Origin: a virus
IMG/VR virus record: IMGVR_UViG_3300045988_166882
DNA length: 64,000 nucleotides
Direction: 5' to 3' (one strand)
The notes beneath the pieces were generated by a model. It ran no database searches and was not told where the DNA came from. It was given only the letters and a program-made list of their open reading frames with translations. The position numbers and the translations under genes were made by a program. Of the stretch, positions 5,532 to 37,845 are shown piece after piece (position 1 is the first letter of the stretch; each line of letters begins with the position of its first letter).

Positions 5532-5602
5532 TGATTCGTGGTGTAACGGTAACACACCAGATTTTGGTTCTGGCGTTGGAGGTTCGAATCCTTCCGGGTC
5601 AA
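5532..5602 (+). tRNA. tRNA-Gln (anticodon UUG)
   Basis: 71-nt cloverleaf folded by hand.
- Acceptor stem TGATTCG/CGGGTCA (2 G-U pairs; U1-A72 as in bacterial tRNA-Gln).
- D stem GTGT/ACAC with loop AACGGTA.
- Anticodon stem CCAGA/TCTGG with loop TTTTGGT.
- 4-nt variable loop.
- T arm GGAGG-TTCGAAT-CCTTC.
- CCA is not encoded. Confidence 0.9.
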
Positions 5603-5883
5603 CTCTAAGGGCTTTTCGCGAAGAGCCTACCGAAGATCGCTAACGCCGCTGGCTGCGCTTCGGGTCGTGATAACCGGAATCACGATGACGCCGCGGCAAC
5701 CATAACCCCGAAGGTCAGGGGTTCAAAGAAATTTCGTTCGTCATCGTTGTGGCAGTTCGCCCGCCCGGCCGGCATGGGGAAGATCAATAGGAACGGCAAC
5801 CGACGAGCGCGGGGCGCGAAATATCGCCCCGACCCTAAAAGTCTTAACAGACTTCCATCAATCAAAGGTTTAATTCACCCCGG

Positions 5884-11493: not shown

Positions 11494-12309
11494 ATGAAAA
11501 CTCTGATAGCACTATTCACCCGCGGTCGTATCGATCGCCAAAAGACCCTCCAACGGCTCACGCCTCAGGCGCGCCGCCGCGTGACGGTATTCTGTCACCC
11601 CGGCGAGTTGGCTGCTCACCAGCGTAACTGGGGCGGTGAGGTTGCCGCCATCGAGGAATACAGCACTGCGTGTCGCGGCGTGGGGGACATACGGGACTAC
11701 ATCGTTGTAGAGGCCCAAAAGCGGGGATTTGGCGGAGTCTTTTTCTTAGACGATAACGTGTCTTTCTCGCTGCGTTTAGACGATGCCAAGACCCCCGTGG
11801 TGGTAAACAACGACAATTTCACCGTCGAGGCCCAAGAATACATCTATTCGATGATGTTCGACTGGGTGGCGGAGCACTTGGACACCTACGCCGTCGCCGC
11901 GCTTTCGTATCGGCCCTTTAACCGCGACAAGGAACACGACGTACAAATCAACGGGCGATTCTTCTCCATTTGGGGACTGAACATCGCCCAGTACCTCAGC
12001 CAGCCCGTGAGGTTTCGCGATTGGCCTATCAAGGAAGACTTCGCCGTGGCTTGCGGTTTACGCCGCGCCGGGCTGGATAACGTGGTGTCGTACCAGTATT
12101 CGTTCGACAAGATGACCGGAGCCAACGCCGCTGGCGGTTGTTCCGTGTACCGCACTATCGAGAACTCCAACGCCGAGTCACAACGTTTAAGGGAAGAGTT
12201 CCCCGAATATATCACCCTTCGTACCAAGAAATGTACCAATTGGGGGGGTGAAATGAAGGACCGTGAAATGATTGAAGTTAAAATACACTTAAAAGGTTAC
12301 AAGAAATGA
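11494..12309 (+). CDS. GT-A-like (DxD) glycosyltransferase candidate, paralogue of 29682..30485
   Basis: Shares block order with the 29682 ORF:
- N-terminal strand LIALFTRGR vs FFVVSKNRP.
- Acidic turn FFLDDN vs VVMDDD.
- EDFAVACGL vs CDIDYSLKC.
- ANAAGGCSVY vs ANQGGGLQDVY.
Family assignment is not verified. Confidence 0.45.
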   Translation: MKTLIALFTRGRIDRQKTLQRLTPQARRRVTVFCHPGELAAHQRNWGGEVAAIEEYSTACRGVGDIRDYIVVEAQKRGFGGVFFLDDNVSFSLRLDDAKTPVVVNNDNFTVEAQEYIYSMMFDWVAEHLDTYAVAALSYRPFNRDKEHDVQINGRFFSIWGLNIAQYLSQPVRFRDWPIKEDFAVACGLRRAGLDNVVSYQYSFDKMTGANAAGGCSVYRTIENSNAESQRLREEFPEYITLRTKKCTNWGGEMKDREMIEVKIHLKGYKK

Positions 12310-12869
12310 TCGTAAAATTCAAGAAAGTACACCCCGACGCCGTACTGCCGCACTACGCTCACCCCGACGGTGAGGACAACGGACTGGACTTGGTTGCCGC
12401 AGCCGTTTTCGAGTCCGACGACTACATCGAGTACGACACAGGTATCGCCGTTGAAATCCCCAAGGGGTACTGCGGCCTGTTGGTCCCGAATTCACGTTGT
12501 TCGAAAAAGGACCTCGTGATGTGTAACGCGCCGGGTATCATCGACCCCGGATATCGCGGTACGATGCGTGCCCGCTACAAGAAGGTTTGGCACCTTCCGA
12601 CGCTGCTCCATAAGTTCCTCCGCAGCGTGTGTACGTTGTTCTCGAACGCCTTCGGTGAAATAGCCGGGTTGCGTGCACAGGAAATCAATTTCGACGTCAA
12701 GCAGTTTGAGGTCGGTGAGGTAGTGGCCCAGTTGGTTATCATCCCCGCGCCGCAGATCGAGGTTGAGGAAACTGACACGCTGACGCCTTCGATGCGTGAC
12801 ACCGCGGGGTTCGGTTCGACGGTAAAAGCGGTTCCCGAGAGCGAACGTGTTCAAAATGCCGAAAAATAG
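12306..12869 (+). CDS. dut: dUTP diphosphatase (trimeric dUTPase) with an internal insertion
   Basis: Motif I NGLDL, II PNSRCS, III GIIDPGYRG, IV GEVVAQLVI, V RDTAGFGST. About 40 extra residues sit between motifs III and IV. Confidence 0.85.
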   Translation: MIVKFKKVHPDAVLPHYAHPDGEDNGLDLVAAAVFESDDYIEYDTGIAVEIPKGYCGLLVPNSRCSKKDLVMCNAPGIIDPGYRGTMRARYKKVWHLPTLLHKFLRSVCTLFSNAFGEIAGLRAQEINFDVKQFEVGEVVAQLVIIPAPQIEVEETDTLTPSMRDTAGFGSTVKAVPESERVQNAEK

Positions 12870-13050: not shown

Positions 13051-13638
13051 ATGAAAACGATCCTCCAACACAACCCCGCCAAACAGGACAACGTCGAAGC
13101 CATGGCCGACGCGCTGGTAGAGTCGATGCGCTTCGCTGACCCTACGGTTGATTATCCTGATATCTCCAAGGCCAAAGCCGACGACGGCGTTCCGGCCGAG
13201 TGGTTCCACAAGGCATACGCCGGCATTACCGGTACGTCGGAACTCACGGCCATTCTTCAGTACACGCAGCAGCGGATGATTTTTGACCAGATTGGAGAAA
13301 CGTTCCTCGGTATCGCCCTCACCGAGATGAAGCACTACGACCGATTAGGCGACTTCATCGACCATATCGGGGGCAGCGTATCGCGGCCCGTATTTTCGGC
13401 AGCCAAAGTGGACATTACGACCGAAAGCGCGGCCGAAGCCGTCCAGATCAACATCCGCGCCGAGCAGGACACCATCGCCGAGTACGAGAAACTCATTCAG
13501 CGTATTCAGGCCAACAACCCTACGCCGACCGTTACATCCACGCTGGCGGTTCAACTTATCAACAAAATCATCGCCGACGAGCGCGTCCACGTGCGGTTGT
13601 TGAGTGAATTGGCGATTATGATCGATGAAACGTTATGA
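13051..13638 (+). CDS. ferritin-like di-iron/di-manganese four-helix-bundle protein
   Basis: Ligand pattern E...ExxH...E...ExxH: SELTAILQY, EMKH, AEQDTIAEYE, ERVH. Resembles the Mn-catalase/CotJC/rubrerythrin-type ferritin-like fold. Confidence 0.65.
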   Translation: MKTILQHNPAKQDNVEAMADALVESMRFADPTVDYPDISKAKADDGVPAEWFHKAYAGITGTSELTAILQYTQQRMIFDQIGETFLGIALTEMKHYDRLGDFIDHIGGSVSRPVFSAAKVDITTESAAEAVQINIRAEQDTIAEYEKLIQRIQANNPTPTVTSTLAVQLINKIIADERVHVRLLSELAIMIDETL

Positions 13639-15848: not shown

Positions 15849-16049
15849 ATGAAGAAATGGATGTGGATTCTTATCACCGCGGTGGTCCTTGTGATTGCCG
15901 CGGTGGTGTACGCTCATGAGGCGAAGATTATCCACACGCTGGTAGCCATCTTCTCGTTTGTAGCGGGAGTAGTGGCTCACTGGGCGTGGGTAAAGTATTT
16001 GGCCGCGAAGGCCGTTAAACAGGACAACAACGATGGAAAACATTCGTGA
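15849..16049 (+). CDS. small two-helix membrane protein (66 aa)
   Basis: Two hydrophobic segments, WILITAVVLVIAAVVYA and LVAIFSFVAGVVAHWAWV. A holin-like or other membrane role cannot be told from sequence. Confidence 0.5.
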   Translation: MKKWMWILITAVVLVIAAVVYAHEAKIIHTLVAIFSFVAGVVAHWAWVKYLAAKAVKQDNNDGKHS

Positions 16050-16710
16050 CATCATCCTCGGCGCTCGTGCTCAGCGTCAGGATCACATGCTGAAAGGCTT
16101 CGCCCCGGTCCCTGAAGACATTGAGGAGGGTGAAAAGGTCGAGAAGGCCGACAACGTCTTTGAGAAGATGGCCGACGCCATCGAAAAGGCTGAGTCGGAC
16201 GACGCCGAGGAAGCCCTCCAAGGCGAGATTCAGAAATCGGACATCATGCAGGCCATCAGCGGTTACGGCTCGGAAATCAAGTTCAGCCGCTTGGGGAAGG
16301 AAATCAAGGCTAAACTGAAGGCTGATATTCTTCCGCCGTTGAACGCCAAACTGCAGGTCCTTACCGCCGAACTGGAAAGCCTTTTGGGTAACTGCGGCGG
16401 TGCGCCTACCGAAACCGTTCCGCCGTGGTATACGGCCGAGATCAAGATGGACGTTCCGTTCCGGCTGTTCAGCTGGGAAGAAACCAGTGACCGTGAAGCC
16501 CCTGCGCTGGCTGGTACGCTGGTCGACAACCAAACCGAAAACGCCGTAACGCCCGAAATGTACAAGTGCCGGCGTGACTACAACGAAAAGGTTCGTGACT
16601 ACGCCAACGTGGCTACCGATATCAAGGCGTGCGAGATTCTCGACACCAACCTCTCCGACAACGAACGTTACCAGCTGTCGCCTCGGCAGTTGACGATGTT
16701 CGGATTCTAA
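16033..16710 (+). CDS. hypothetical acidic protein (225 aa)
   Basis: ATG ORF. The long antisense ORF 16015..16878 is judged a shadow ORF. Confidence 0.55.
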   Translation: MENIRDIILGARAQRQDHMLKGFAPVPEDIEEGEKVEKADNVFEKMADAIEKAESDDAEEALQGEIQKSDIMQAISGYGSEIKFSRLGKEIKAKLKADILPPLNAKLQVLTAELESLLGNCGGAPTETVPPWYTAEIKMDVPFRLFSWEETSDREAPALAGTLVDNQTENAVTPEMYKCRRDYNEKVRDYANVATDIKACEILDTNLSDNERYQLSPRQLTMFGF

Positions 16711-16752
16711 ACCTCTTTTCTGTTTCCATTTTGTCAGGTTTGTTAGGACAGC

Positions 16753-16789
16753 GGCCCCGATTCGTAAGCGTTTCGGGGCCAACGTTTTT
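16753..16789 (+). terminator. rho-independent terminator
   Basis: Perfect 8-bp GC stem GGCCCCGA / TCGGGGCC with a 12-nt loop, then AACGTTTTT. Confidence 0.65.
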
Positions 16790-16795
16790 GAGCGT

Positions 16796-17110
16796 ATGGA
16801 CCGATGGAGATATTTCAAAATAGGTGATATCGTCACCGACCCCGAAGTGTGGGGAAAGACGATGTTCGTAATACGCACGCTGCACGGTAACGACTACTGC
16901 CCGCTGATCAGTGGCGAGTCCCTAAAACCGATCCGCGGTCGCCGTATAAGGGTAAACCTCGGCGTGGGGGAGACGCGTCTTGTAAACGCTCCTAAACGTC
17001 CGTTGATGAAGATTCCCGACGGTACGTTGGTGCGGTTAGCTGGAAAGAGCGTTGAAGCGCGGCGCGAATTGTTAATTAGAAGCTATCGTAAACAATATGG
17101 CAACGTTTGA
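16796..17110 (+). CDS. hypothetical protein (104 aa)
   Basis: ATG ORF after the terminator. No motif recognised. Confidence 0.5.
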   Translation: MDRWRYFKIGDIVTDPEVWGKTMFVIRTLHGNDYCPLISGESLKPIRGRRIRVNLGVGETRLVNAPKRPLMKIPDGTLVRLAGKSVEARRELLIRSYRKQYGNV

Positions 17111-18107
17111 CCATTATGCTTGGGCTGATAAACTACCCGACGCGTCGCTCGACGTGAGCGCAGAACACCACACGGAGTTCTTCCGGACGATGTTCGAGCG
17201 TCAGATGATATGGAAACGGCGGTTCTTAGATCAGGCTCCGCGCCCGTGGACTGAAGACCCCATACTACGCGACTACAAGTTTACCAACGTCTACCGCGAA
17301 CTGGACCGAAACTCCCAGTGGCAAATACGTAATATCCTACTCGATGACGGGTTGACGCTGGCGAATCTGGTGTGGAAGATGATGGTGTTCCGCTATTTCA
17401 ACAATCCCGCCACGTTCGAATACGCTCGCGAAAAGTACGGTTGGGGAGCCGGCATCCCGGATCACGACCAATACGACGAAGACCTCTTTGCCGAGATGAT
17501 AACGTCGTACCGCGCTACGGGTAACAATCCCTATACTACGGCGTATCTGATCAATTCGATGGCCACGCCCGGTAAGCCGCGCGACTACTGCTACACGCAC
17601 TTGGTCGTCCCGACGCTTCACCGTCGGTTAGGCGAACTGATGCGGACGGTGTTGACGGCTGACACTCCGGAGCAGATCATCAAGTTCCTTCAGAGCCTTC
17701 CTTCATCGGCGACGTTTATCGCTCACGAATTCTACCAAGACTTCACCTACATACCGCGTTACACCTATCGCCGTTTTATGCGTTTCACCCAAGACGACTA
17801 CACCAACGTCGGTCCCGGCGCGTCCATAGGGCTGCGGCTGGTGTTTCCGTCGTTGAAGTGCCAAATTGACGGTATCTACCGTTTGCGTGACGAAGCCCGC
17901 GAGGCTCTTCAGCAGTGTGGAGACTTTCCATACCTACATTGGGATCGCGCAGGGCGTTGCTACCGGGTGTCGCGCTGCGGCGACGTGACGCTTCATCAAG
18001 TTGAGATGTGGCTGTGTGAGTACCAGAAGTACTGGAAGATGAAGATCGGCGAAGGGAAGCAACGCTCAATCTTCGAACCGCGAACTCGTAAAATTGTAGG
18101 CCAATGA
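17097..18107 (+). CDS. candidate DNA thymidine-hypermodification enzyme (aGPT-Pplase / 5-hmdU-DNA-kinase helical-domain-like)
   Basis: N-terminal block RPWTEDPILRDYKFTNVYRELDRNSQW matches my recollection of the signature of the predicted alpha-glutamyl/putrescinyl-thymine pyrophosphorylase and 5-HMUDK helical-domain families. There is no P-loop. Not verified by search. Confidence 0.45.
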   Translation: MATFDHYAWADKLPDASLDVSAEHHTEFFRTMFERQMIWKRRFLDQAPRPWTEDPILRDYKFTNVYRELDRNSQWQIRNILLDDGLTLANLVWKMMVFRYFNNPATFEYAREKYGWGAGIPDHDQYDEDLFAEMITSYRATGNNPYTTAYLINSMATPGKPRDYCYTHLVVPTLHRRLGELMRTVLTADTPEQIIKFLQSLPSSATFIAHEFYQDFTYIPRYTYRRFMRFTQDDYTNVGPGASIGLRLVFPSLKCQIDGIYRLRDEAREALQQCGDFPYLHWDRAGRCYRVSRCGDVTLHQVEMWLCEYQKYWKMKIGEGKQRSIFEPRTRKIVGQ

Positions 18108-18427
18108 TCACGTTCCACACCCCGTTGGAAACGGGCGAGTTTATGGGCATCGACTTTCAGGTGATGGCCGATGACCTTTCAACCAGTGCCGCACGATTAG
18201 TAGTCGTCGGCACTTTCATATCACCCCTTACCGTTGAAGAGAAATCACACCTCCAAGACCTCGTTCACTTAATCCGCCGCGACGGTGAGTGGAACGGTTC
18301 GTATGACGACCAGACGGACTACTACTCATGGAACGGTCATCAGGTAGCAGTTTGGGGCGATATCATCCATCAGGCTATCATCATACGCAAGACGGCCCGC
18401 AACGACTTTTTGAATCTGTTGAGTTGA
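18104..18427 (+). CDS. hypothetical protein (107 aa)
   Basis: ATGA overlap with the upstream gene. Confidence 0.5.
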   Translation: MITFHTPLETGEFMGIDFQVMADDLSTSAARLVVVGTFISPLTVEEKSHLQDLVHLIRRDGEWNGSYDDQTDYYSWNGHQVAVWGDIIHQAIIIRKTARNDFLNLLS

Positions 18428-18464
18428 CAGCCAATTATAGCTTAACAAATCGCATAAAAACATT

Positions 18465-20225
18465 ATGTCCGGTGTAAAAGAAAGATTGGAATCGGTAGAA
18501 CGCGCCATGCAGGCTCTCACGATACGTAAATCGTTGTTGATGGAGCGAGCGTTGCGCAGCGACAACCCGTCCGACATACTCAAAGCCGCTGAGATATTCA
18601 ATCAGCAATCCAAGCCCGCTAACGTTGCTCCGAAGGCGTACCTGATCGACCCTTTGGAGTTCAATTCGTTTTTGGGCTATAAGGATAAGCCGTTTTCGCT
18701 TTCGTACGAAACGCTCCGCCGGATGAGCCGCACCCCCATCATCAACTCAATCCTCAAGACCCGTAAGAACCAGATAGCCGACTTCGCTGAACCGCAGGCC
18801 GACCGCTATTCGACGGGCTTCGTGATTCGCCGTAAGCCCAAGCACGGCCAAGAGCAGAAGATGGATTCACAGGACCGCAAGATCGCGTCTTCCATCACCG
18901 ACTTCATCCTCAACTGCGGCGATACCGCTACGTGGGACGGCGACGAGTTTGATGAGTTTATTCGTAAAATCGTTGACGACTCGTTGACGTTCGACCAGAT
19001 GACGTTCGAGTGTATCCGGAACCGCCGCGGCAAACTGGTACGCTTTCAGGCCGTGGACGCCGCTACGTTCCGTCTTGCGGAATCGTACTTCGACGGCGAG
19101 TACAACAACCCGTACTTCGACGGCGCCATGACCGACGATCGCCAAAATTGGGGTCCCAAGGTCGACGGCTATTATCCGGCCTACGTTCAGGTGTACCAAA
19201 CAGCCAAGGTGGCGCAGTTCTATCCGTGGGAGTTGTGCTTCGGTATTCGCAATCCGACCACGTCGATCTACGCCAACGGCTACGGCAACTCAGAGTTGGA
19301 AGAGTTGATCAACGTGGTCACGTCGATGCTTTGGGGTGATGAATACAACCGCCGTTTCTTCTCACAAGGTTCTGCGCCGAAGGGTCTGCTCCGCATCAAG
19401 GGTAACGTCAACGAGGCGTCACTCCAGCAGTTCAAGCAGCAGTGGCAGGCCATGATATCCGGCGTTATGCAGTCGTGGAAGACGCCCGTCGTTGAGGGCG
19501 ATATCGACTGGGTTGACCTCCAGAAGAACAACCGCGACATGGAGTACAACTCTTGGATGGAGTACCTGATCAAGATCGCGTGCGCCGTATTCTGTATTGA
19601 CCCCACGGAAATCGGCTGGGATATTTCACGCTCCAACGGCAGCGGCCTTACCTTCGGCGACGGCCAAAAGCAGCGCATGGAGCAATCGAAAGACAAGGGT
19701 CTCTACCCGATGCTGAAATTCATCCAGCGTAAGATCAACAAATTCATCGTCGAGCAGATCAACCCCGACTTCGAGTTTGTGTTCATGGGCCTCAACGGTA
19801 TGACCATCTCCGAGGAATTGGAGATGGACATCAAACGCCTCCAAGCCTTCCAGACCGTGGACGAGATTCGCGAGAAGTGGGACCTCCCGGCTATCGGCGA
19901 AGAAAAGGGTGGCGATACCATCGAGAACGCCGTCATCCAGCAAGCACTCAGCGCCAAGCAACAGCAGCAACAGGCGATGGGTGGTATGGGCGGCGGCAAC
20001 CCGTTCGAAGAGGCTGCGGGTATGGGTATGGAAGTCGCGGGTGGCCCGGCTGATGAACCTGTGGCTGGCGGCGAAGGTGAGGAAGACGATGAAGCGCAGG
20101 CCGGCAACCCGTTCGATCTCTACGCCCAAGGCGACGAAGAAGAAACTATGAAGGCCCGTGAGGCAAATCCGCTCGTGGCCGCATTCGATGAATACTTACA
20201 AAAAGCAATAAACCATGACGAGTAA
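18465..20225 (+). CDS. portal protein (probable)
   Basis: 586 aa. The central region (NGYGNSELEELINVVTSMLWGDEYNRRFFSQGSAPKGLLRIKG...WKTPVVEGDIDWVDL...KIACAVFCIDPTEIGW) resembles Phage_portal-type proteins. The C-terminal tail is acidic and Gln/Gly-rich. Confidence 0.65.
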   Translation: MSGVKERLESVERAMQALTIRKSLLMERALRSDNPSDILKAAEIFNQQSKPANVAPKAYLIDPLEFNSFLGYKDKPFSLSYETLRRMSRTPIINSILKTRKNQIADFAEPQADRYSTGFVIRRKPKHGQEQKMDSQDRKIASSITDFILNCGDTATWDGDEFDEFIRKIVDDSLTFDQMTFECIRNRRGKLVRFQAVDAATFRLAESYFDGEYNNPYFDGAMTDDRQNWGPKVDGYYPAYVQVYQTAKVAQFYPWELCFGIRNPTTSIYANGYGNSELEELINVVTSMLWGDEYNRRFFSQGSAPKGLLRIKGNVNEASLQQFKQQWQAMISGVMQSWKTPVVEGDIDWVDLQKNNRDMEYNSWMEYLIKIACAVFCIDPTEIGWDISRSNGSGLTFGDGQKQRMEQSKDKGLYPMLKFIQRKINKFIVEQINPDFEFVFMGLNGMTISEELEMDIKRLQAFQTVDEIREKWDLPAIGEEKGGDTIENAVIQQALSAKQQQQQAMGGMGGGNPFEEAAGMGMEVAGGPADEPVAGGEGEEDDEAQAGNPFDLYAQGDEEETMKAREANPLVAAFDEYLQKAINHDE

Positions 20226-27122: not shown

Positions 27123-28051
27123 TTTTCAACAATCGCCAAATAGACGACATGGTCGGCATTCTCCGGCGTTGGCAGTACCTGTTTATTGCCAAGCACGTCG
27201 GATTAGACTTTCTGACCCAGTCGGAGATCGACATCTTGGTGGCGTCAGGGGTCAACGTCGATAAGTACAAGAACACGAAAGGTATCATCGAACACGCTTT
27301 TCTGTTCGGTATCTTGGCTGAGGCACTCGGCGATCAACGCGCCAAGAAGATGAATTACAAGCAGTTTCTCCAGTACCTCAAATCAGGAAACTTCGTTCCG
27401 CTCACCGAGCAGGAGGAGAACGCGCTGAATTATCTCAAGAACCGCGCCTACACCGACATCACGTCGCTCGGAAACCGTATCGTTACCGGTACGCGCAACG
27501 CCATCCTCAAATCTAACTTTCGTCAGCAAGCCGCCATACGCCAGCAGATCAAAGATAAGGCCATGCAAGCCGTCCAACTGCGTAAGGGGGCGCGGTATAT
27601 AGCCAGCGAATTGGGGAACCTTACCCAAGACTGGGGACGCGATTGGCTGCGTATTGCGTACTACCTTCTGCACGAAGCCTACAACGTGGGCCGCTCGGAA
27701 AGTATCTACAAGCAGTATGGCCCCGACGCTATGGTGTATTTCGACGTATACCCCGGCGCGTGTGCCAAATGCCGCGAGTTGTACTTGGAGGACCCCGAAG
27801 ACCCTAATTCGAAGCCAAAACTGTTCCGCCTCGGAGACCTTATCGCCAACGGTAACAATATCGGCCGTAAGGTGGCTGAGTGGCTTCCTACGATCGACCC
27901 GACGCACCCCTACTGCCGCTGTACTATCAACCACGTACCGCCGGGGTACGAGTGGGACCCTGAAACACGCGCTTTCACCAAGCCTGTCAAGCGTCAGTTC
28001 AAGAACCCAAAGTTAAGGAACGTGAAACTCAACATTAAAGTAACAAAATAA
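27119..28051 (+). CDS. head morphogenesis protein, SPP1 gp7 / Mu F-like
   Basis: C-terminal LPTIDPTHPYCRCTINHVP carries the HPxCRC signature of the family. The start is taken at the ATGA overlap (27119) rather than track start 27089. Confidence 0.7.
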   Translation: MIFNNRQIDDMVGILRRWQYLFIAKHVGLDFLTQSEIDILVASGVNVDKYKNTKGIIEHAFLFGILAEALGDQRAKKMNYKQFLQYLKSGNFVPLTEQEENALNYLKNRAYTDITSLGNRIVTGTRNAILKSNFRQQAAIRQQIKDKAMQAVQLRKGARYIASELGNLTQDWGRDWLRIAYYLLHEAYNVGRSESIYKQYGPDAMVYFDVYPGACAKCRELYLEDPEDPNSKPKLFRLGDLIANGNNIGRKVAEWLPTIDPTHPYCRCTINHVPPGYEWDPETRAFTKPVKRQFKNPKLRNVKLNIKVTK

Positions 28052-29010
28052 TGAAAAACAAAATCGTACAAGACCCCCCGTTCACCATGCAGATCGAGCC
28101 GACCGAGGGTTGTAACTTGGGGTGTTCGTTCTGCGGCCTTCACGGCATGCGTGAAAAGGGTACCAAACCGTGGAATTTCATGACCGTCGAAACCGCCGAG
28201 CGTATCGCTTCTGAGGTAGCGCGTGTGGGCTGGAATTGCAAGTTCGTGTTCGCTATGCACGGCGAACCCACGCTCAACCCGGCGTTCATCGACATCGTGG
28301 CCACGTTCCGCAAGCACTTGCCGAAGGCCGTGTTCCATATGTACAGCAACGGCTACGCCATGAACCACGCCGACGACACCGAGGCTTACCTCGACCGCCT
28401 GTTCGGCGCTGGCATGAACGACATCTTGGTGGACTGCTACACCGCCAACGGCGACTGGAATTTCGTCGAGAAGATCGATGTCGATAAGTACAACGTCGTC
28501 ACGCTGGAACCGGGCGTTCCGTACTACTACCCCAAGCAGGGCCGTCGTATCTGCTTGCTGCCGCCCATCGCCCAGGACGATACCAACAAGATGACGCGGC
28601 GTCTGGCCAACCACTGCGGCGCGGCGTTCCCGCTCGACGATTCGTTCAACAACAAGCGTTGTACTTTCCCGTTCCGGGAACTGGACGTGCGCTGGAACGG
28701 TCAGGTCTGCTTGTGTTGTGACGACTTCCGCGGTGAGTACCCCATCGCCAACATCCACGACATGCCCATCGAAGACCTTTGGAACCACCCGCGCTTCCAC
28801 GCCGCTCGCGTGATGCTGTACAATAACGACCGCCGCTTCCGCCCGTGTCAGGGGTGTACGCACGTCAGCGTTCGCGTTGGCTTCCTGCCTGACAAGAAGG
28901 GTAAGCAGACGCTGCCGGCTATCACGCCCGAAATCCGCCGTATGGCTGAAGAGGTATCGAAGGACGGCCCCTGCGCCGAGAAGATTTACCGACGGCCATG
29001 GGAAAAATAA
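28051..29010 (+). CDS. radical SAM enzyme with C-terminal Cys-rich (SPASM/twitch-like) extension
   Basis: EPTEGCNLGCSFCG contains CxxxCxxC, and HGEPTLNP resembles the SAM-binding motif. C-terminal cysteines: CTFPF...CLCCDDF...CQGC. The start overlaps the MuF stop (TAATG). Confidence 0.85.
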   Translation: MKNKIVQDPPFTMQIEPTEGCNLGCSFCGLHGMREKGTKPWNFMTVETAERIASEVARVGWNCKFVFAMHGEPTLNPAFIDIVATFRKHLPKAVFHMYSNGYAMNHADDTEAYLDRLFGAGMNDILVDCYTANGDWNFVEKIDVDKYNVVTLEPGVPYYYPKQGRRICLLPPIAQDDTNKMTRRLANHCGAAFPLDDSFNNKRCTFPFRELDVRWNGQVCLCCDDFRGEYPIANIHDMPIEDLWNHPRFHAARVMLYNNDRRFRPCQGCTHVSVRVGFLPDKKGKQTLPAITPEIRRMAEEVSKDGPCAEKIYRRPWEK

Positions 29011-29678
29011 AGTACCTTTGTGTCGAGTCTCAAGCGGGTGATCTCCTGATGAGTGCTTGTCACGTTTTAGTAGCACCTGAATATGACGTTCGGGTGCTTA
29101 CTGTAGATAACGCCCCAAAGCCTTTGGCTGAGCAGCAGCGGTTGTACGATTTTCTGGGTATCGGGATGGACCGCTTGGACTTAGAGTTAGAAGATGTCCG
29201 TTGTGGCGATTTTAAGGCCCATTCTGCGGACTGCAACTACGAAGGCGTCTATACGTACCTTCGCGCGAAATACGGGAACGACGGACTTAATTTCGCCGAA
29301 CAAACGCTTCGCGATTACCTGCGTAAGTTTATGCGCCGCAACCCCGGTTACGTGATACTGGCGCCGCTGGGGTCGGGACACCCCTTCAACCAGTTCGTTC
29401 ACGATGTGGTGTTTGATACGGCGTCGGCGGCAGAATACTATCGCGACTTTCCATATTCGTACGTACCACGGGGTCGTGAACAGGTCAGGGTCCAGTGCTA
29501 CGGCGGCGAAACTTTACTGATGAAACGCCGAGTTCCGTGCGACGATATGTTCGACGTGAAGTGGGAACTGGCTATGCGCTTCTACCCGTCGTTATCGCCG
29601 ACGATACGCAAGTATCAGCGTTTTATAGAACAAAACCCGCCCGAAGAAATCTGGTACGAGGGCGATTTACCATTTTAA
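28998..29678 (+). CDS. hypothetical protein (226 aa)
   Basis: Overlaps the radical SAM gene by 13 nt. Only a faint LmbE/PIG-L-like topology (VILAPLGSGHPFNQFVHD), and the N-terminal metal motif is not conserved. No function is assigned. Confidence 0.5.
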   Translation: MGKIKYLCVESQAGDLLMSACHVLVAPEYDVRVLTVDNAPKPLAEQQRLYDFLGIGMDRLDLELEDVRCGDFKAHSADCNYEGVYTYLRAKYGNDGLNFAEQTLRDYLRKFMRRNPGYVILAPLGSGHPFNQFVHDVVFDTASAAEYYRDFPYSYVPRGREQVRVQCYGGETLLMKRRVPCDDMFDVKWELAMRFYPSLSPTIRKYQRFIEQNPPEEIWYEGDLPF

Positions 29679-29681
29679 GCT

Positions 29682-30485
29682 ATGGATTGTCAATTCTTCG
29701 TCGTGTCCAAGAACCGCCCCAAGTGCGTCACGACCAAATTGTTGGAAAAGGGCGGCGTCGACTACCACATCGTGGTCGAAAAGGAAGACGTTGAAAAGTA
29801 CGTCGAAGCAGGTCACGACCGTAAGCGGTTGATCGTACTACCAGCGTCGAACCGCGGCTACAGCTACGTGGTCAATTTCTGCAAGAACACCTACCTCCGC
29901 GCCGGGCGGCCTGTGGTGGTGATGGATGACGATATCGCCAACTTCTTCTACTCGATCGACGGCGAAGCCAAATGCGGCCTTTCGCTGAAGACCCCAGAAG
30001 AACTGTCAGAGTTCTTTGAAGAGTTCAACCGCGAAGTCATGGAGACCGACTTCGAGTACGGCACCATGGGCAAGAGCGCCTTCGACTGGAGTTGTACCGA
30101 CGTCAGCCCGCGTTTCAAGTACGGCGGTATCCCTCACCTCATCGTGTTCAAAGGGCTGCGGACGCTGGAGTTGGACTTTGACGAAAAGTTGGAGTTGAAG
30201 TGCGACATCGACTATTCGTTGAAGTGTATGTATCTGGGCATCGTCTACGCACGCTTCGTACGCTTCCTTCTCCAGAGTAAGATGAACAAGGAGGCAAATC
30301 AGGGCGGCGGCCTTCAAGACGTGTACGAGCGTCAGGAACGTGTTCAGCGTGCTCACAACATCATATTGAAGCGGTGGCCGCTGAACGCCCGTGTCGATGA
30401 CAAGAAGAAGCCCATCAACGGCGTACCGGAGTTACGTATTGTGTACAAGAAATTTGATATTGACTTTGATGCGGTGGAGGTGTAG
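29682..30485 (+). CDS. GT-A-like (DxD) glycosyltransferase candidate, paralogue of 11494..12309
   Basis: FFVVSKNRP...HIVVEKEDV...VVVMDDDIANF...ANQGGGLQDVY. See the entry at 11494. Family not verified. Confidence 0.45.
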   Translation: MDCQFFVVSKNRPKCVTTKLLEKGGVDYHIVVEKEDVEKYVEAGHDRKRLIVLPASNRGYSYVVNFCKNTYLRAGRPVVVMDDDIANFFYSIDGEAKCGLSLKTPEELSEFFEEFNREVMETDFEYGTMGKSAFDWSCTDVSPRFKYGGIPHLIVFKGLRTLELDFDEKLELKCDIDYSLKCMYLGIVYARFVRFLLQSKMNKEANQGGGLQDVYERQERVQRAHNIILKRWPLNARVDDKKKPINGVPELRIVYKKFDIDFDAVEV

Positions 30486-30520: not shown

Positions 30521-32269
30521 ATGTCAGACAATATCCAAAAAGCAAAGCACAACGTCGGCGATCATCATCCTACGCAACCGTGGGTGTGGACGGAGTACAA
30601 GCCCGGAAAGTTCAACTGGCGTGTCGACAAGAACGCCAAACCCAAGGACAACGCCGATACCGGTAAACAATCGACAGGCGGCGGCGCCACGAGCCTCGAA
30701 GAGTGGGCTAAGCGTACCACCGACGACAACCTGCTCAAAGTAGTAAACAACCCCAAAGGTAACGCGCAGTTGCGGCAGATTGCCTACAACGAACTGAAGT
30801 CACGTAACGCCGATCTTTTGCAGGTCGATACAAGCGGTACGTTGGCCACGCTGTTGAAGATGACCACCCAGCAGGACCCCGTGGCACCCACCAACGCCGC
30901 GGCTAAAGTAGACATCAACGACGGCGAGGGCGGAAACGACGACGGTGAAATCGTTGAAGACTGGTTCCTCAACCCTGACGACCCGCGCATTCAGAAGAAG
31001 TTCAACAAACTCCAAAGCCGTCAGGACCGTATTGCGTACGACCGCTTCGTCTACGCGATGAAGAAGAAGGACCCTGACTACCAGCCGCCTGTTGAGGTGA
31101 TGTACGACCTGAACCGCCAGTATCTGGAGTTCTTGGACAACAAGGAGCAGCGGTTCATGATCTCGGCTGGTGGTGCCGGTATCGGTAAATCGTACGGTTT
31201 CAAGAAAATCGCCGAACTGCTCAACAAGCGTCCGTTTGACGCCGAAACCGACGCGCCGGGCGATGGCGACTATGACTACGTTGAACTCGGTGACATCAAC
31301 TCCAAGAAGCAGCTGCTGGGCGTACTCAAAGCCCACAACGGCAAGATTCTTCTGTTCGACGATACCGACTCCGTTATCACCCGCGCCGACTTGGCTTCCA
31401 TCATGAAGAAGGCCACTTCCGCTTCAGGTAAGCGCGTGGTCGGAGACCCGGACGACGTCAAGTCGAATTTCGTATTCACGGGCCGTATCATCATCATGAC
31501 CAACAAGGACCTCGTGAACCTCGCCAAGAACGAGGATGCCAAGGCTATCATTTCGCGCGCTACGCTGACGTCGGAAGTCTACCTGACCGTTGACGAGACG
31601 ATCGAGGTTCTGAAGGACCGCTACGAAGACATGGACGTTCCCCAGCAGCCGCACCTCGATGACCCCGAAGAGGACAAGCAGGAACGTAAAGAACTGTTTG
31701 ACCTTATTGTCAAGAACAAGAATAAGATCGACCCTGCCAAGTTTACCACCCGTACCTTTGGCACCATCTTGTCGGAGAAGCGTTCTGCCGACCGCGCTAA
31801 CAAGCGCGCCAAGCAGGGCGGTCAGTGGACAAACCTGATCGGCAGCCAGCAAAAGGAGTGGGAACGCGCCGCCGTTCGTGCACTGACGAAGGGACTCGCG
31901 TACGAGGCCATTCAACCCGTCGAAACGTCGGATGATATCAGTAAGGCCGAAGCCCTGCTCAGCGACGCAGAATCGCTCGAAAAGGCCGATTTTACCGAAG
32001 AGCAGCGTGAGAAACTTGCCAAGAAGAAGGAGGCCCTCCCTGACGGCTCGTTCCCGATTCGTAACAAGTCCGACCTGAAGAACGCCATCCGTCTTGCTGG
32101 TAACGCCAAAAACCCCGAACGCGCTCGGCGCTGGATCAAACGCCGCGCCAAGTCGCTCGGTGCTGAGGATATGATCCCCGACACGTGGAAGGCTCAGACT
32201 ACTGACCTCGGTTCGCTGCCGGCTGACGACATGTCGATCGAAAAGGCTGAAACCCTCTTGTTCGGATAA
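30521..32269 (+). CDS. P-loop NTPase (AAA-like) with phage-type C-terminal DGSFPIRN...AIRLAGNAKNP motif
   Basis: Walker A ISAGGAGIGKSYG, Walker B KILLFDDTD, then GRIIIMTNK. The C-terminal LPDGSFPIRNKSDLKNAIRLAGNAKNPERARRWIKRRAKSLG resembles a short module I recall from actinophage capsid/protease-associated proteins. Confidence 0.65.
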   Translation: MSDNIQKAKHNVGDHHPTQPWVWTEYKPGKFNWRVDKNAKPKDNADTGKQSTGGGATSLEEWAKRTTDDNLLKVVNNPKGNAQLRQIAYNELKSRNADLLQVDTSGTLATLLKMTTQQDPVAPTNAAAKVDINDGEGGNDDGEIVEDWFLNPDDPRIQKKFNKLQSRQDRIAYDRFVYAMKKKDPDYQPPVEVMYDLNRQYLEFLDNKEQRFMISAGGAGIGKSYGFKKIAELLNKRPFDAETDAPGDGDYDYVELGDINSKKQLLGVLKAHNGKILLFDDTDSVITRADLASIMKKATSASGKRVVGDPDDVKSNFVFTGRIIIMTNKDLVNLAKNEDAKAIISRATLTSEVYLTVDETIEVLKDRYEDMDVPQQPHLDDPEEDKQERKELFDLIVKNKNKIDPAKFTTRTFGTILSEKRSADRANKRAKQGGQWTNLIGSQQKEWERAAVRALTKGLAYEAIQPVETSDDISKAEALLSDAESLEKADFTEEQREKLAKKKEALPDGSFPIRNKSDLKNAIRLAGNAKNPERARRWIKRRAKSLGAEDMIPDTWKAQTTDLGSLPADDMSIEKAETLLFG

Positions 32270-32272
32270 CCC

Positions 32273-34657
32273 ATGGACGAACTGAGAAAAGCGCTGGAAA
32301 CTTTCGCCCTCCGTAACGCCGAGGGCGAAGTTTCTGACGCCATGCTGGAGAAGGCGTGTGAGGCGTACAAGGTTCGTTCTTCAGAGTTCGTCGACGACTA
32401 CCAGTATAACCTGTACGTGGCGAAGTCCGTCTACGATCACCTCCATGGCGTCGATCAAGACCCTGAAATTTCAAAGGCTATCATGCCCGGCCAGACTAAG
32501 GTTGTCGATGGCGTGGTGTATATTTGGACGCTTACCCCTAACGCCAAAACGAAGTACGACTGGCGAGTTTACAAGAATCCTCAAGGTACACCCGTTGGAA
32601 AGGGTCCTTTTCGCTCTAAAGCCATATTAGAACGGCAGCAGAAGGAAGTGAACGAAATGTTCCCCGCCGACCCCTCTGAATTGACCTTCGTTCAGAAACT
32701 GGGCGGTTCTACGGGGGCTGAGTTGATGAAAGACGCCAAGGGCCGTGAGTTCGTCGTAAAGAGTTCTAAGAACACCACCCGCGGTCACATCGCAGCGGAG
32801 TACTACGCCGCGCAGGTATACAGCCTTTTGGGGTTGGACACGCCTGACTATGAAATGTACGACGACGGAACGGACCTCGTGTTGATATCGAATTACATGC
32901 GCGGCATGTCCGAACCTCAAGTTAAGGACTACGACACCATGGCTAAAGGCTTTGTCGTTGACGCCTTTTTGGCCAACTGGGATATTTACAAAAACGACAA
33001 CTGCTTGGTTGACGCCGCTGGTAAAGTCTACCGCGTCGACAACGGTAGTACGTTTGATTACCGTGCCCAAGGAGCCAAGAAGCCTTTTGGCAACCAAATC
33101 GACTGGGATAACATGGTGCGGTACAATTCCAGCGTGGTTGCCAACCTCAAGCCGCAGGACTTCATCGATCAGATTGACGCCCTGAAAGCCCGTAAAGACG
33201 AAGTATTGGCGTATTTTGACGCCGGAAGGCTCGGTTCCAAGCCGAAGATGCGCGCCATCATTGAGGCTCGTTTCAAAGACCTCGACCGCATCCGCGGTAT
33301 TTATGAGATAGAAGTACGTCGTACCAGCAGACAAGTTGCGCCCCGAACGCTCAAGTCTCCGGCAGATATGTACCGCGACTTCACCGAAGATGAGATCAAT
33401 GATTTTTGGAATAATCAGCCCGGAGCCGATTATTACCAAAAGTTACAACGTCACAGCGGCCATACGGGGTGGGAACTGCTCTCTACCATTTGTAGCGCTC
33501 GTGGCTTTGATGCGCGGCCTGATGTAGTCGACGACGCTACGTTCTTCGCCAAGGCTGCTCAGAATAAGTATCATATGTTCCGGGGAGTGGAACGTAACGG
33601 AACGGATAAAAACTACTACGCCGACGACTTCAAGTACAACGACGCTTGTTACTACGGAACTGTTGGTGTGTATGCTGAAGGAATCTATTTCCATGTGAAC
33701 GATTCGTCTAACGCCGACCGCACTCCATCCGGCTATCAGAAGACTTCGGCTTATCACAACGCTCGCGGTTACGCGGGTAGTGGTGCCATTATCGAGGCAG
33801 TTCTCGACGACAGCGCCAAGGTCATAACCGTTAATGACGCTCGTGAAGAGGTCAAGCAACTGTCTGCCGGTAATTCACCTGCTTTCCAAAAGGCAAAAAA
33901 AGAACTCGACGACGCCAAGGCCGAATACCAGCGCGTAACCGACGAACTCAACAACCTTACCGACACTACCGAAAAGAAGGTAAAGTCCGATATGCACTGG
34001 GACGACGCTTCGTACGTCGATATCCCGTTACAAATCGACCAGATTATCGACTGGGGTGCCATCGACGATGACGGCAACCCGGCATACATGAAGTTTGACG
34101 ACTTCATGGATAATCACCTAAAAGGCTGGATCAAGGCTAACGGCGGTACTATTACGGCCAAGGGTGGAGGCACCGACGACTACGTCATCAAGATGCCTAA
34201 CACCAACGAACGGTTCGTCTTTTCGCGCTTTCGGTACGAGAACGACGCTATCAAACGTAAGAACGCATTTGCGCGTCCGTACAACTATCCCGTTCGCCAG
34301 CTGAAGGAATGGATCATGCGCGAGCACTTCGGTAAAATTGAAGATGCCGTAAAGAGTGCCATCAACAACTTGGATGACGAAGTGAAACGTTTGCAGGGCG
34401 AACAGCGCAAGGCGTATGTCGATTACAAAGACAAGGACAACGCCATGAGCAAGTTGAGCGTAAACGCCGTTGGTGATCCTGATAAGGACATCTATGCTGC
34501 CATCTACAAGAACGTTCATAAGGACGGCGAAAAAGAAGCACTGGGCGTATACGCTGCTTTGAAGGGATATGACGCCCTTATTCAGCCTAACGGAAACGGT
34601 TCCGGTAACTCGTTCATGATCGTGTTGAATCGCTCTAAAATCATTACTCGTAAATAG
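32273..34657 (+). CDS. large multidomain protein: protein-kinase-like fold plus ADP-ribosyltransferase-like domain
   Basis: Kinase-like region: GGSTGAELMKDAKGREFVVKSS, AAEYYAAQVY, DAFLANWDIYKNDNCLVDAAGKVYRVDNGSTF (catalytic loop plus DxG-like). ART/PARP-like region: YHMFRGV, YYGTVGVYAEGIYFHV, GSGAIIEAVL. All by-eye calls. Confidence 0.55.
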   Translation: MDELRKALETFALRNAEGEVSDAMLEKACEAYKVRSSEFVDDYQYNLYVAKSVYDHLHGVDQDPEISKAIMPGQTKVVDGVVYIWTLTPNAKTKYDWRVYKNPQGTPVGKGPFRSKAILERQQKEVNEMFPADPSELTFVQKLGGSTGAELMKDAKGREFVVKSSKNTTRGHIAAEYYAAQVYSLLGLDTPDYEMYDDGTDLVLISNYMRGMSEPQVKDYDTMAKGFVVDAFLANWDIYKNDNCLVDAAGKVYRVDNGSTFDYRAQGAKKPFGNQIDWDNMVRYNSSVVANLKPQDFIDQIDALKARKDEVLAYFDAGRLGSKPKMRAIIEARFKDLDRIRGIYEIEVRRTSRQVAPRTLKSPADMYRDFTEDEINDFWNNQPGADYYQKLQRHSGHTGWELLSTICSARGFDARPDVVDDATFFAKAAQNKYHMFRGVERNGTDKNYYADDFKYNDACYYGTVGVYAEGIYFHVNDSSNADRTPSGYQKTSAYHNARGYAGSGAIIEAVLDDSAKVITVNDAREEVKQLSAGNSPAFQKAKKELDDAKAEYQRVTDELNNLTDTTEKKVKSDMHWDDASYVDIPLQIDQIIDWGAIDDDGNPAYMKFDDFMDNHLKGWIKANGGTITAKGGGTDDYVIKMPNTNERFVFSRFRYENDAIKRKNAFARPYNYPVRQLKEWIMREHFGKIEDAVKSAINNLDDEVKRLQGEQRKAYVDYKDKDNAMSKLSVNAVGDPDKDIYAAIYKNVHKDGEKEALGVYAALKGYDALIQPNGNGSGNSFMIVLNRSKIITRK

Positions 34658-37359: not shown

Positions 37360-37401
37360 ATTAACAGTGGTGCATCTTCGGGTGGAATAGCTCCCGGTAC
37401 A

Positions 37402-37809: not shown

Positions 37810-37813
37810 AATA

Positions 37814-37845
37814 AATCCCCCTCCTATTAAGAGGGGGATTTTCTT
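37814..37845. terminator. bidirectional rho-independent terminator between convergent genes
   Basis: Perfect 10-bp stem AATCCCCCTC / GAGGGGGATT with a 7-nt loop. T-rich on the + side (TTTCTT) and A-rich upstream (T-rich on the minus strand). Confidence 0.8.

Follow-up and report, generated by a model that had tools for sequence, protein, structure and literature searches.

A free-standing PF18723 protein in an uncultured phage whose genes suggest a variant of thymidine hypermodification

The PF18723 gene and its family

We analysed a stretch of 64,000 nucleotides from an uncultured virus (IMG/VR record IMGVR_UViG_3300045988_166882; hereafter the window), which is from a tailed-phage genome and carries nearly all of its genes on the + strand. 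The gene under study is an open reading frame (ORF) at 17097..18107 on this strand, which starts with ATG, has its stop codon within these coordinates, and encodes 336 aa. A first-pass annotation had proposed the product to be a thymidine-hypermodification enzyme on account of a hallmark block, RPWTEDPILRDYKFTNVYRELDRNSQW (residues 49-75), and had deduced that the phage probably carries a modified thymine. Our analysis places the protein in the Pfam family PF18723 and suggests that it may act on 5-hydroxymethyl-2'-deoxyuridine (5-hmdU) in phage DNA, within a variant of the known thymidine-hypermodification systems.

The match to PF18723 was full-length (E=6.9e-50, 170.4 bits against a cutoff of 25; residues 25-320, positions 4-279 of the 281 in the profile), and our own hidden Markov model (HMM) of the family scored the protein at 383 bits. 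In PHROGs the protein fell into phrog_2396 (E=6.6e-47), the function of which is not annotated. The NCBIfam scan gave no match, and megablast of the 14-22 kb part of the window found no match among GenBank phages. The first-pass family assignment was correct. It had named two related families, the alpha-glutamyl/putrescinyl-thymine pyrophosphorylases (aG/PT-PPlase or aGPT-Pplase) and the helical domain of 5-hmdU DNA kinases (5-HMUDK); the relatedness stands, but these are one family under two names, since PF18723 (HMUDK_hel) is the aG/PT-PPlase paralogue called aGPT-Pplase clade 1. The label of thymidine-hypermodification enzyme is supported by the genomic context and the conserved catalytic residues, not by a demonstrated activity of PF18723.

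In a set of 5.8 billion proteins, 673 homologues of the ORF were found at E<=1e-5, and all of them had PF18723 only. At 50% clustering, the family had 3,056 cluster representatives at E<=1e-3 and 1,242 at E<=1e-10. Most representatives stand alone at a length of 300-350 aa, with an N-terminal extension in a few; the start site of the ORF was kept in homologues. The exact 336-aa protein occurred on 16 metagenomic contigs of up to 101 kb. Among proteins of cultured phages, the ORF is homologous to gp50 of phage PaMx11 (27% identity, E=1e-18). The same Pfam scan assigned PaMx11 gp50 (5.6e-41) and the "clade 1" protein of Bacillus phage Nachito (1.7e-49) to PF18723, and PaMx11 gp46 to PF18724 "ADDT" (1.6e-27). 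The ORF had no match to PF18724 at E<=1. Since the ORF is homologous to gp50 and not detectably to gp46, it belongs to the paralogue family and not to the amino acid:DNA transferases (AADTs). By sequence, therefore, it is a member of PF18723, an uncharacterised sister family of the AADTs, and it extends this known family, which has no assigned function, by a new and divergent gene. PhiW-14, ViI, and M6 have two aG/PT-PPlase paralogues each, while SP10 has one, C-terminal on its kinase (gp186C) (Lee 2018, PMC5889632). The clade numbering of these proteins was swapped between Lee 2018 (PMC5889632) and Lee 2021 (PMC8989533).

Conserved residues, fold, and relation to amino acid:DNA transferases

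Conservation was read from a local alignment of 139 PF18723 members with no more than 50% mutual identity. R35, N64, R67, D70, R99, F207, E211, D215, G239-P240-G241, G245, and Y312 were near-invariant, and so was the C-terminal part (E303 in 93% of the members, C307 in 99%, E308 in 98%, and K311 in 99%). The signature of the family (N64, R67, and D70 of the F-T-N-V-Y-R-E-L-D block; G239-P240-G241; E303, C307, E308, K311, Y312), each position of which is 86-100% conserved, is complete in the ORF. It includes a helix-hairpin-helix (HhH)-like hairpin at G239-P240-G241 and a putative catalytic motif, E303-x3-C307-E308-x2-K311-Y312.

When gp46 was added to the PF18723 proteins of three phage lineages, the invariant positions shrank to P240, E303, and C307. 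BLASTP, MAFFT, and hhalign alike aligned E303 and C307 on E243 and C247 of gp46; hhalign of the ORF profile and of the 139-member profile against gp46 was not significant and was kept for the alignment register only. In the crystal structure of gp46 with DNA, Cys247 turns towards the flipped-out target nucleoside (PMC11472151). The "clade 2" proteins M6 gp51, ViI gp247, PaMx11 gp46, and PhiW-14 gp109 are AADTs, which displace the phosphate of 5-phosphomethyl-dU (5-PmdU) via an essential Cys and a neighbouring Glu; mutation of the Cys or the Glu abolishes the activity of M6 gp51 and ViI gp247 (Lee 2021, PMC8989533). The equivalent Cys of the phage 15599 enzyme is likewise essential.

An AlphaFold (AF2) model of the ORF product, built on 27 homologues, was nearly all-alpha (predicted local distance difference test score (pLDDT) 87.8, predicted template modelling score (pTM) 0.87). 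Foldseek against BFVD, a database of predicted viral structures, matched the model to SP10 gp186 (E=7e-15, TM 0.76) and the PhiW-14 paralogue (1.7e-6), and entries from phiRSL1, PhiW-14, and "Pplase1 clade 1" matched at 1e-11 to 6e-5. A BFVD protein with the name "Amino acid:DNA transferase domain" also matched (probability 1.00, E=0.015, TM 0.46). Among 350,542 PDB chains, the top match was gp46/PUGT (8z2m), a weak one (E=0.29, TM 0.41-0.47), followed by DUF2419 and HhH-GPD glycosylases. The profile search of PDB with the ORF gave no sequence-detectable relative, and the PF18723 family HMM failed to detect gp46. The kinase domain of SP10 gp186 is active without its C-terminal PF18723 domain; this and the conservation pattern speak against PF18723 being no more than an accessory. 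By its conserved residues and by analogy with the AADTs, the ORF most likely encodes a catalytically competent, free-standing PF18723 enzyme with an AADT-type dyad.

Genome reconstruction and the supply of 5-hmdU

We rebuilt the whole genome from near-identical contigs, using the terminal genes of the window and then IMG/VR relatives anchored on a 100%-identical DnaB. One further extension step overlapped the upstream extension and closed a circle of ~100 kb. Downstream of the window are genes for a DEAD-box helicase, DnaB, a primase, three unannotated ORFs, a ThyA-like protein, a DnaE-type polymerase, and an HD/YfbR-like 5'-deoxynucleotidase. Beyond the HD nucleotidase are RecA-, Mre11-, Rad50-, and UvrD-like genes (by Pfam) and a RuvC-like gene (read from the sequence).

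The first-pass annotation had found neither a ThyA-like gene nor a P-loop hmdU kinase in the window. We confirmed this, and located a ThyA-like gene ~10 kb past the window end (window-equivalent ~74.1-75.3 kb; L015:14718-15935, 405 aa). Contig L015 is from the same phage species (DnaB 100% identical in amino acids; 96.5% nucleotide identity over a 4-kb overlap with the window). The protein matched PF00303 (5e-22) and the PaMx11 hydroxymethylase gp51 (3e-38), and its closest cultured relatives are the dUMP hydroxymethylases of SPO1 (gp29; 46.7% identity, 7e-45), SP8, SP82G, and SP10. It scored 127 bits against the PaMx11 hydroxymethylase and 63 bits against the best true thymidylate synthase (TS) in PDB. 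The catalytic Cys is kept, and the pyrimidine selector position has Asn where the CMP hydroxymethylase MilA has Asp; on this residue and the nearest relatives, a dCMP hydroxymethylase was rejected. From its closest relatives, we predict that the protein is an SPO1 gp29-type dUMP hydroxymethylase.

The ThyA-like gene is a core gene of the phage family. It has 643 homologues on contigs of the same size class, the same synteny was found on an independent contig, and a 103,105-bp contig carries both the ThyA-like gene and a PF18723 homologue (P0005) that is 62% identical to that of the window. Around the circular map, the PF18723 gene is ~43 kb from the hydroxymethylase gene (57 kb the other way). 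The window itself has a dUTPase gene (Table 1), which is conserved next to the large terminase (TerL) gene in relatives. An analogy with the dTTPase gp18 of phage 15599 was rejected, since that enzyme is of the dimeric all-alpha type and the window dUTPase of the trimeric type. The presence of an SPO1 gp29-type dUMP hydroxymethylase, DnaE, and an HD 5'-nucleotidase in the same ~100-kb genome strengthens the earlier deduction of a modified thymine.

Searches for a kinase, an AADT, and a dioxygenase

For this inventory, Pfam scans or precomputed Pfam matches were available for the majority of the genes; outside the block that is obviously structural, every stretch was covered. No P-loop 5-hmdU kinase was found: when every ORF of the closed genome was searched by phmmer --max, using PaMx11 gp49 and the Nachito kinase as queries, E was at best ~1, and a Walker-A scan together with Pfam found as P-loop proteins only DnaB, RecA, UvrD, Rad50, and one AAA+-like protein. 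The genome may have a 5-hmdU kinase that is very divergent or non-homologous. No AADT was found either: in the search of the closed genome with gp46, the best match (E=0.019) was on a 55-aa antisense fragment, and PF18724 matched nowhere. The closed ~100-kb genome has a single PF18723 gene. No TET/JBP dioxygenase, C5-methyltransferase, or pyridoxal phosphate- or flavin adenine dinucleotide-dependent tailoring enzyme was present in the Pfam scans, and a TET/JBP-based route to 5-hydroxymethyluracil (5hmU) or 5-hydroxymethylcytosine (5hmC) was rejected for lack of the dioxygenase and the C5-methyltransferase.

In cultured phages, the kinase and PF18723 go together in a ratio close to one-to-one (411 + 28 records versus 453, with matching genus counts), and the genus counts of ThyA-like and PF18723 matches are nearly identical. 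The kinase-less state of the window phage thus departs from the cultured paradigm. In Acinetobacter phage nACB2, considered as a comparative case for the thymine-restoring alternative given below, the genes are scattered, and the family HMM found no PF18723 gene in the 40 kb around the kinase. The first-pass annotation had described a gene set arranged differently from the published clusters, which was right and understated, as the P-loop kinase and the AADT are absent from the genome and not just from the window.

Three proteins were considered as a hidden kinase. A 189-aa ORF upstream of the window contains GDDVVGKS but does not resemble a kinase. The 582-aa P-loop protein (Table 1), encoded directly downstream of a glycosyltransferase gene (TAGT-2) within the virion-gene region, was read by eye as AAA+-like and rejected as a small-molecule kinase. 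The third, of 794 aa, has a protein-kinase-like domain at ~aa 135-330 and is the only kinase-fold protein found in the genome. In Foldseek, its AF2 model (pLDDT 86) matched APH-type and eukaryotic-type protein kinases at a probability of 1.00, among them the amicoumacin kinase AmiN and H. pylori CtkA, as well as PI3K/PI4K; K163, E176, and D256-N257-G258 are invariant. The protein belongs to the core of the phage family and is restricted to it, and none of its 164 homologues has a Pfam domain. By eye, its C-terminal half looks like an ADP-ribosyltransferase (ART). It might speculatively, by its modelled fold, stand in for the missing 5-hmdU DNA kinase; no link to DNA was found, and an injected effector is more likely.

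Synteny and other candidate modification genes

The order FEN exonuclease, two ORFs, a small ORF of 104 aa, PF18723, a small ORF, and portal is kept in relatives (L060-L062; 56-62% identity; contigs of 103-117 kb). The glycosyltransferase genes and the radical S-adenosylmethionine (rSAM) gene are present in some of these relatives and absent in others. Thus, PF18723 and the hydroxymethylase are the conserved core of the gene set and the glycosyltransferases are accessory. The first-pass remark that the modification genes are scattered rather than clustered held for the window, where they are dispersed. The nearest cultured relatives of the portal protein are from a 103-kb Chryseobacterium phage (40.7%) and SPO1-group Herelleviridae (~41%).

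The 104-aa ORF is in the same place in L060-L062, and it is 45% identical (E=8e-27) to the syntenic ORF of L060, in which PF18723 is 62% identical. The ORF downstream of PF18723, unlike this one, is not conserved in relatives. Since the 104-aa ORF overlaps the start of the PF18723 gene by 14 nt, it is probably translationally coupled to it, and the overlap suggests that the product is a functionally coupled partner of the PF18723 protein.

Table 1. Coordinates of the PF18723 gene and other features in the 64,000-nucleotide window
Feature	Position	Strand	Evidence and remarks
tRNA-Gln	5532-5603		anticodon TTG
NUMOD3-containing homing-endonuclease-like gene	5954-6832		
Large terminase (TerL)	8757-11474		905 aa in total, split by an intein
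GT-A glycosyltransferase TAGT-1 (TET-associated/JGT-like)	11494..12309	+	PF20691 2.9e-13; phrog_842 4.6e-28
dUTPase family, trimeric type with insertion	12306..12869	+	PF00692 1.1e-9; phrog_135 2.7e-29
Ferritin-like di-iron protein	13051..13638	+	PF00210 9.5e-7
104-aa ORF	16796..17110	+	overlaps PF18723 ATG by 14 nt; no Pfam or PHROG match
PF18723 (HMUDK_hel, aGPT-Pplase clade 1) protein	17097..18107	+	free-standing, all-alpha, HhH-glycosylase-like; Pfam 6.9e-50
rSAM/SPASM enzyme	28051..29010	+	PF04055 1.3e-15; PF13186 2.6e-12; CxxxCxxC at aa 20-27
226-aa protein	28998..29678	+	between rSAM and TAGT-2, overlaps rSAM stop; no Pfam or PHROG match
GT-A glycosyltransferase TAGT-2, very divergent	29682..30485	+	PF20691 1.3e-13; phrog_842 1.8e-18; DDD motif
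582-aa P-loop protein	30521..32269		phrog_1250; Walker A GGAGIGKS, Walker-B-like LLFDD, sensor-1-like MTN
794-aa protein with protein-kinase-like domain	32273..34657	+	AF2 and Foldseek
Fibre-like protein	35614-37359	+	581 aa
Hairpin	37813-37841		within a low-GC patch (GC 0.445)
229-aa protein	37844-38533	-	similar to C-terminal part of the fibre-like protein

Two GT-A-like paralogues, a dUTPase, a di-iron protein, and a radical SAM enzyme had been listed in the first pass. By Pfam, the last three are all present. Both GT-A genes also match PF20691, with the motifs DDN/EDF and DDD read from the sequences, but they are not recent paralogues: TAGT-1 and TAGT-2 have no pairwise BLASTP similarity (E=0.45) and are joined only via the PF20691/phrog_842 profile. 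TAGT-1 is, by sequence, a candidate 5-hydroxymethyl-pyrimidine DNA glycosyltransferase; it is present in L060 and absent from the loci of L061 and L062. The closest PDB matches of the rSAM/SPASM enzyme were BtrN (1.7e-8) and anSME (2.5e-6), to which its auxiliary-cluster region is also closest. Its gene is also in L060, followed there by a gene for a 219-aa protein similar in size to the 226-aa protein of the window, and a role as a tailoring enzyme for the modified base is possible. The di-iron gene is beside the dUTPase gene in relatives, and Ferritin/Rubrerythrin matches were found at the same place in L061 and L062.

Comparison with known systems

The PF18723 proteins of cultured phages (SP10 gp186 C-terminal domain, PaMx11 gp50, and Nachito "clade 1") are only 24-29% identical to the ORF, but they have the same Pfam family, length, and all-alpha fold (TM 0.63-0.76), and share E-x3-C-E-x2-K-Y and other invariants. 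As in the window phage, an SPO1-type dUMP hydroxymethylase and an HD nucleotidase co-occur with them. Unlike in the window phage, which has neither anywhere in its genome, the cultured PF18723 gene goes with a P-loop 5-hmdU DNA kinase (usually adjoining or fused) and an AADT (except in SP10). The location also differs: PaMx11 gp50 is between the kinase gp49 and the hydroxymethylase gp51, whereas the PF18723 gene of the window phage is beside the portal gene and away from the hydroxymethylase. According to the literature, M6 gp55, PhiW-14 gp72, and ViI gp160 are further paralogues of the PF18723 type (PMC5889632).

The AADTs (PaMx11 gp46, M6 gp51, ViI gp247, PhiW-14 gp109, and 15599 Pplase2; PF18724) belong with the ORF to a helical HhH glycosylase-like superfamily and include its best, though weak, PDB fold match. 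They share with it the Glu-x3-Cys dyad at an equivalent C-terminal helix and, presumably, base flipping and Cys-C6 addition. They differ in that only PF18723 has the N-terminal hallmark block and the C-E-x2-K-Y motif, and the TM values are only 0.41-0.47.

The closest published gene set is the HTVC023P-type module of pelagiphages, which consists of TS and aG/PT-PPlase1, to which a 5'-deoxynucleotidase and a phrog_842-type glucosyltransferase are sometimes added (PMC9599517). All four gene types recur in the window phage, and the module, too, has no reported kinase or AADT. The module is found in small marine podoviruses with the genes clustered near PolA, whereas the window phage is a ~100-kb SPO1-like myovirus with dispersed genes and has, in addition, two divergent glycosyltransferases and the rSAM/SPASM enzyme. 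Both systems are known from genes alone.

The 5-hmU pathway of SPO1 consists of gp29, dUTPase, and a nucleotidase. With a ThyA-like protein 46.7% identical to gp29 over the core and a portal ~41% identical, the window phage is, by sequence, a distant relative of the SPO1 group. SPO1-group phages keep plain 5-hmU and are not among the PF18723 matches listed, whereas the window phage adds PF18723, two TAGTs, and rSAM to the pathway, which implies further processing of 5-hmU.

With the base J/5mYOX-TAGT systems, the window phage shares its two JGT-like TAGT GT-A proteins. The phage GT-A family is structurally related to base-J glucosyltransferase (JGT); in metagenomes it accompanies ThyS or 5mYOX genes, and contigs with GT-A plus ThyS are a recognised class (Pyle et al., bioRxiv 10.1101/2023.12.21.572611). 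The window phage differs from these systems in having PF18723 and no detected TET/JBP or C5-methyltransferase. Unlike in the dioxygenase route of base J/5mYOX, its hydroxymethyl base would be expected to come from the nucleotide pool before replication, by way of the ThyA-like enzyme.

Proposed pathway

The gene set is a variant of the thymidine-hypermodification systems, without the P-loop kinase, without an AADT, and with JGT-like glycosyltransferases instead, and the DNA of the phage is probably non-standard and made by a variant route. Proceeding from family membership, fold, conservation of the Glu/Cys dyad, gene inventory, and the absence of a canonical kinase and AADT, we infer the substrate, the chemistry, the order of the steps, and the final base. 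We consider it fairly probable that the phage replicates with 5-hmdU and that the PF18723 Cys enzyme, with the glycosyltransferases, then processes 5-hmdU on the DNA. In this pathway, the dUTPase would provide dUMP, which the hydroxymethylase would convert to 5-hmdUMP; the HD 5'-nucleotidase would help to shift the nucleotide pool, and the phage DnaE polymerase would put 5-hmdU into the DNA instead of T. The PF18723 enzyme would act after replication and flip out 5-hmdU. Cys307 might add to C6, and Glu303, as an acid or a metal ligand, might aid the departure of the C5 substituent. The exocyclic methylene so formed could be captured by a nucleophile or reduced. Both JGT-like GT-A enzymes might glycosylate 5-hmdU in a base-J-like way, and the rSAM/SPASM enzyme might tailor the product.

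Several points weigh against this pathway. The known chemistry depends on phosphorylation of 5-hmdU, yet the genome has no detectable P-loop 5-HMUDK, and in cultured phages the kinase accompanies PF18723 in the near one-to-one manner given above. The links of the ORF to the AADTs in sequence (BLASTP against gp46, E=0.29; hhalign with the 139-member profile, probability 0.2) and in fold (PDB Foldseek, E=0.29, TM 0.41-0.47) are not significant alone. The literature holds no demonstrated activity for any PF18723 protein, and M6 gp55 was dispensable for glycinyl-thymidine synthesis in vitro (Lee 2021, PMC8989533). The ThyA-like gene was read from a strain 96.5% identical in nucleotides (over the 4-kb overlap) and not from the window's own contig, and its assignment as a hydroxymethylase rather than a true TS rests on the closest relatives, without a decisive residue. 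Moreover, the phage is uncultured and the evidence on modification comes from genes, a point that also counts for canonical DNA.

A bolder proposal, which we put forward tentatively and regard as doubtful, is that a widespread family of ~100-kb uncultured SPO1-like phages has a P-loop-kinase-independent route with PF18723 as the sole catalyst forming the C5 methylene and with a thymine derivative not yet described. PF18723 might then act directly on 5-hmdU DNA, or the kinase-fold domain of the 794-aa protein might be a non-orthologous activator. Working with the two JGT-like glycosyltransferases and the rSAM/SPASM enzyme, PF18723 might give 5-hmU that is glycosylated, base-J-like, or tailored further.

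Both the family and the general idea of hypermodification were already known; what is new is that an abundant phage family has a core without the kinase. With more than 3,000 clusters at 50% identity, PF18723 is a large orphan family that accompanies every classical thymidine hypermodification system, and since the 1980s no enzyme has been named for the conversion of leftover 5-hmdU back to thymine in SP10, PhiW-14, M6, and ViI. A phage family with PF18723 in its core and without the kinase and AADT is a natural minimal system in which to learn the function of PF18723. It is abundant in metagenomes, where the exact protein is on the 16 contigs mentioned above and close clusters have hundreds of member sequences. 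If the DNA carries a modified thymine, this bears on restriction resistance, evasion of host defence, and behaviour in sequencing, including nanopore sequencing. Cys-dependent DNA C5-group transferases and JGT-like DNA glycosyltransferases are also under development as DNA-labelling tools.

Alternative functions of the PF18723 gene

The alternative that survives best, unlikely as we consider it, is that PF18723 restores thymine. The same Cys-C6/exocyclic-methylene chemistry with a hydride would turn leftover (activated) 5-hmdU into T before packaging; in the window phage, part of the 5-hmdU would be glycosylated by the TAGTs and the remainder returned to T. The virion DNA of SP10, PhiW-14, M6, and ViI has no 5-hmdU, which is converted at the polymer level to the hypermodified base or T, and the literature assigns no enzyme to the T-forming branch in these phages. 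The DNA of phage 15599 has dT and dapT. M6 gp51 with borohydride gives thymidine from 5-PmdU, so the intermediate can be reduced, and M6 gp55 is not needed for the hypermodification branch (PMC8989533). PF18723 is present in all four classical hypermodifying phages, and SPO1 and SP8, which keep 5-hmU, are not among the matches listed, in which Bacillus-phage records number 6 for PF18723 and 37 for the hydroxymethylase. The PF18723 gene of the window also adjoins the portal gene, near the packaging genes. Against this, no motif for a hydride donor (NAD(P)H, flavin, or folate) was detected, as Pfam finds PF18723 alone, and SP10 lacks a second paralogue, so that its PF18723 domain would also have to do the glutamyl transfer. 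Restoration in the window phage would need an activating kinase, which was not found in the genome, and the accessible literature does not state such a role.

It is less probable that PF18723 is a non-catalytic DNA-binding module that recognises the modified base and guides partner enzymes to 5-hmdU DNA. In other phages the partner would be the P-loop kinase; in the window phage, it would be the TAGTs or the 794-aa protein with the kinase fold. The near-invariance of Cys307, Glu308, Lys311, Glu303, and several Arg, Asp, and Asn residues in the 139 members is typical of an active site, and the dyad coincides with the catalytic residues of the AADTs. Furthermore, the SP10 kinase domain works without PF18723, and the phage family keeps PF18723 as a core gene without any P-loop kinase. 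The idea draws on the Pfam name (kinase helical domain), the modelled HhH-type fold, which would bind DNA, and the ties to kinases: SP10 gp186 and a few long representatives (P0210, P0260, P0269) are kinase-PF18723 fusions, and the two genes adjoin in PaMx11 and Nachito. The dispensability of M6 gp55 in vitro (PMC8989533) is also in its favour.

Somewhat less probable again is canonical DNA, with the ThyA-like protein as an ordinary TS, PF18723 as an HhH repair-type glycosylase or an anti-host enzyme that has nothing to do with base hypermodification, and virion proteins, host glycans, or other non-DNA molecules as the targets of TAGT and rSAM. Databases do name the ThyA-like homologues "thymidylate synthase", but the protein scores twice as many bits against the PaMx11 hydroxymethylase as against the best true TS in PDB (127 versus 63), its nearest cultured relatives are the dUMP hydroxymethylases of SPO1, SP8, and SP10, and its distribution in cultured phages mirrors that of PF18723. 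The rSAM/SPASM enzyme resembles sugar and peptide maturases, and the modification genes are scattered, with TAGT-2 and rSAM inside the virion-gene region. However, the characterised members of the TAGT family act on 5-hydroxymethyl-pyrimidines of DNA, and the family resembles base-J glucosyltransferase (bioRxiv 10.1101/2023.12.21.572611). The conserved dyad of PF18723 is Glu/Cys, and a catalytic Asp pattern of the glycosylase type was not identified.

That the ORF is a small terminase subunit, as its place between TerL and portal, its weak match to phrog_800 ("terminase small subunit", E=1e-6), and some GenBank labels of homologues or neighbours would have it, has next to no chance of being right and is an annotation artefact: the full-length Pfam and structural matches go to PF18723, and the phrog_800 match, which is partial (aa 139-315; profile 323-473 of 511) and would equal the PF18723 part of kinase-PF18723 fusions, arises because RefSeq mislabels PaMx11 gp49, the P-loop 5-hmdU kinase next to gp50, as "terminase small subunit". 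RefSeq gives this name to the 5-hmdU DNA kinases of PaMx11-like and SP10 phages, which have been characterised biochemically (NC_028770.1, NC_026594.1, NC_019487.1, and others; L001:6420-6989), and the mislabel was carried over into phrog_800.

Other features of the genome

An intein, which comprises a Hint domain and a LAGLIDADG homing endonuclease, splits the TerL gene; the insertion is also in relatives, including the 942-aa TerL of L062. In one strain, the DnaE-type polymerase is split into ORFs of 564 aa and 947 aa (L063:5220-9218) with a weak Intein_splicing match, whereas it is intact (1186 aa; 15937-19497) in the 96%-identical strain L015, suggesting a mobile intein or homing element that is polymorphic in the phage population.

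The only clear gene on the - strand encodes a 229-aa protein resembling the last 227 aa of the fibre-like protein (33% identity, E=3e-31). The two genes (35614-38533) converge on a hairpin, as might be seen with a receptor-binding tip that is alternative or can be switched, but neither an invertase nor inverted repeats of the crossover type were found.

The tRNA-Gln gene is just upstream of the NUMOD3-containing gene, the product of which varies in length among strains (282-292 aa). In the equivalent neighbourhood of relatives (L061:4028-4285 and L062:1753-2988), Sequestin (PF21825) was found in both and a weak Tad2-like match in L062. Given these domains, which are of anti-defence type, the region from TerL to the FEN exonuclease may be a variable counter-defence island.

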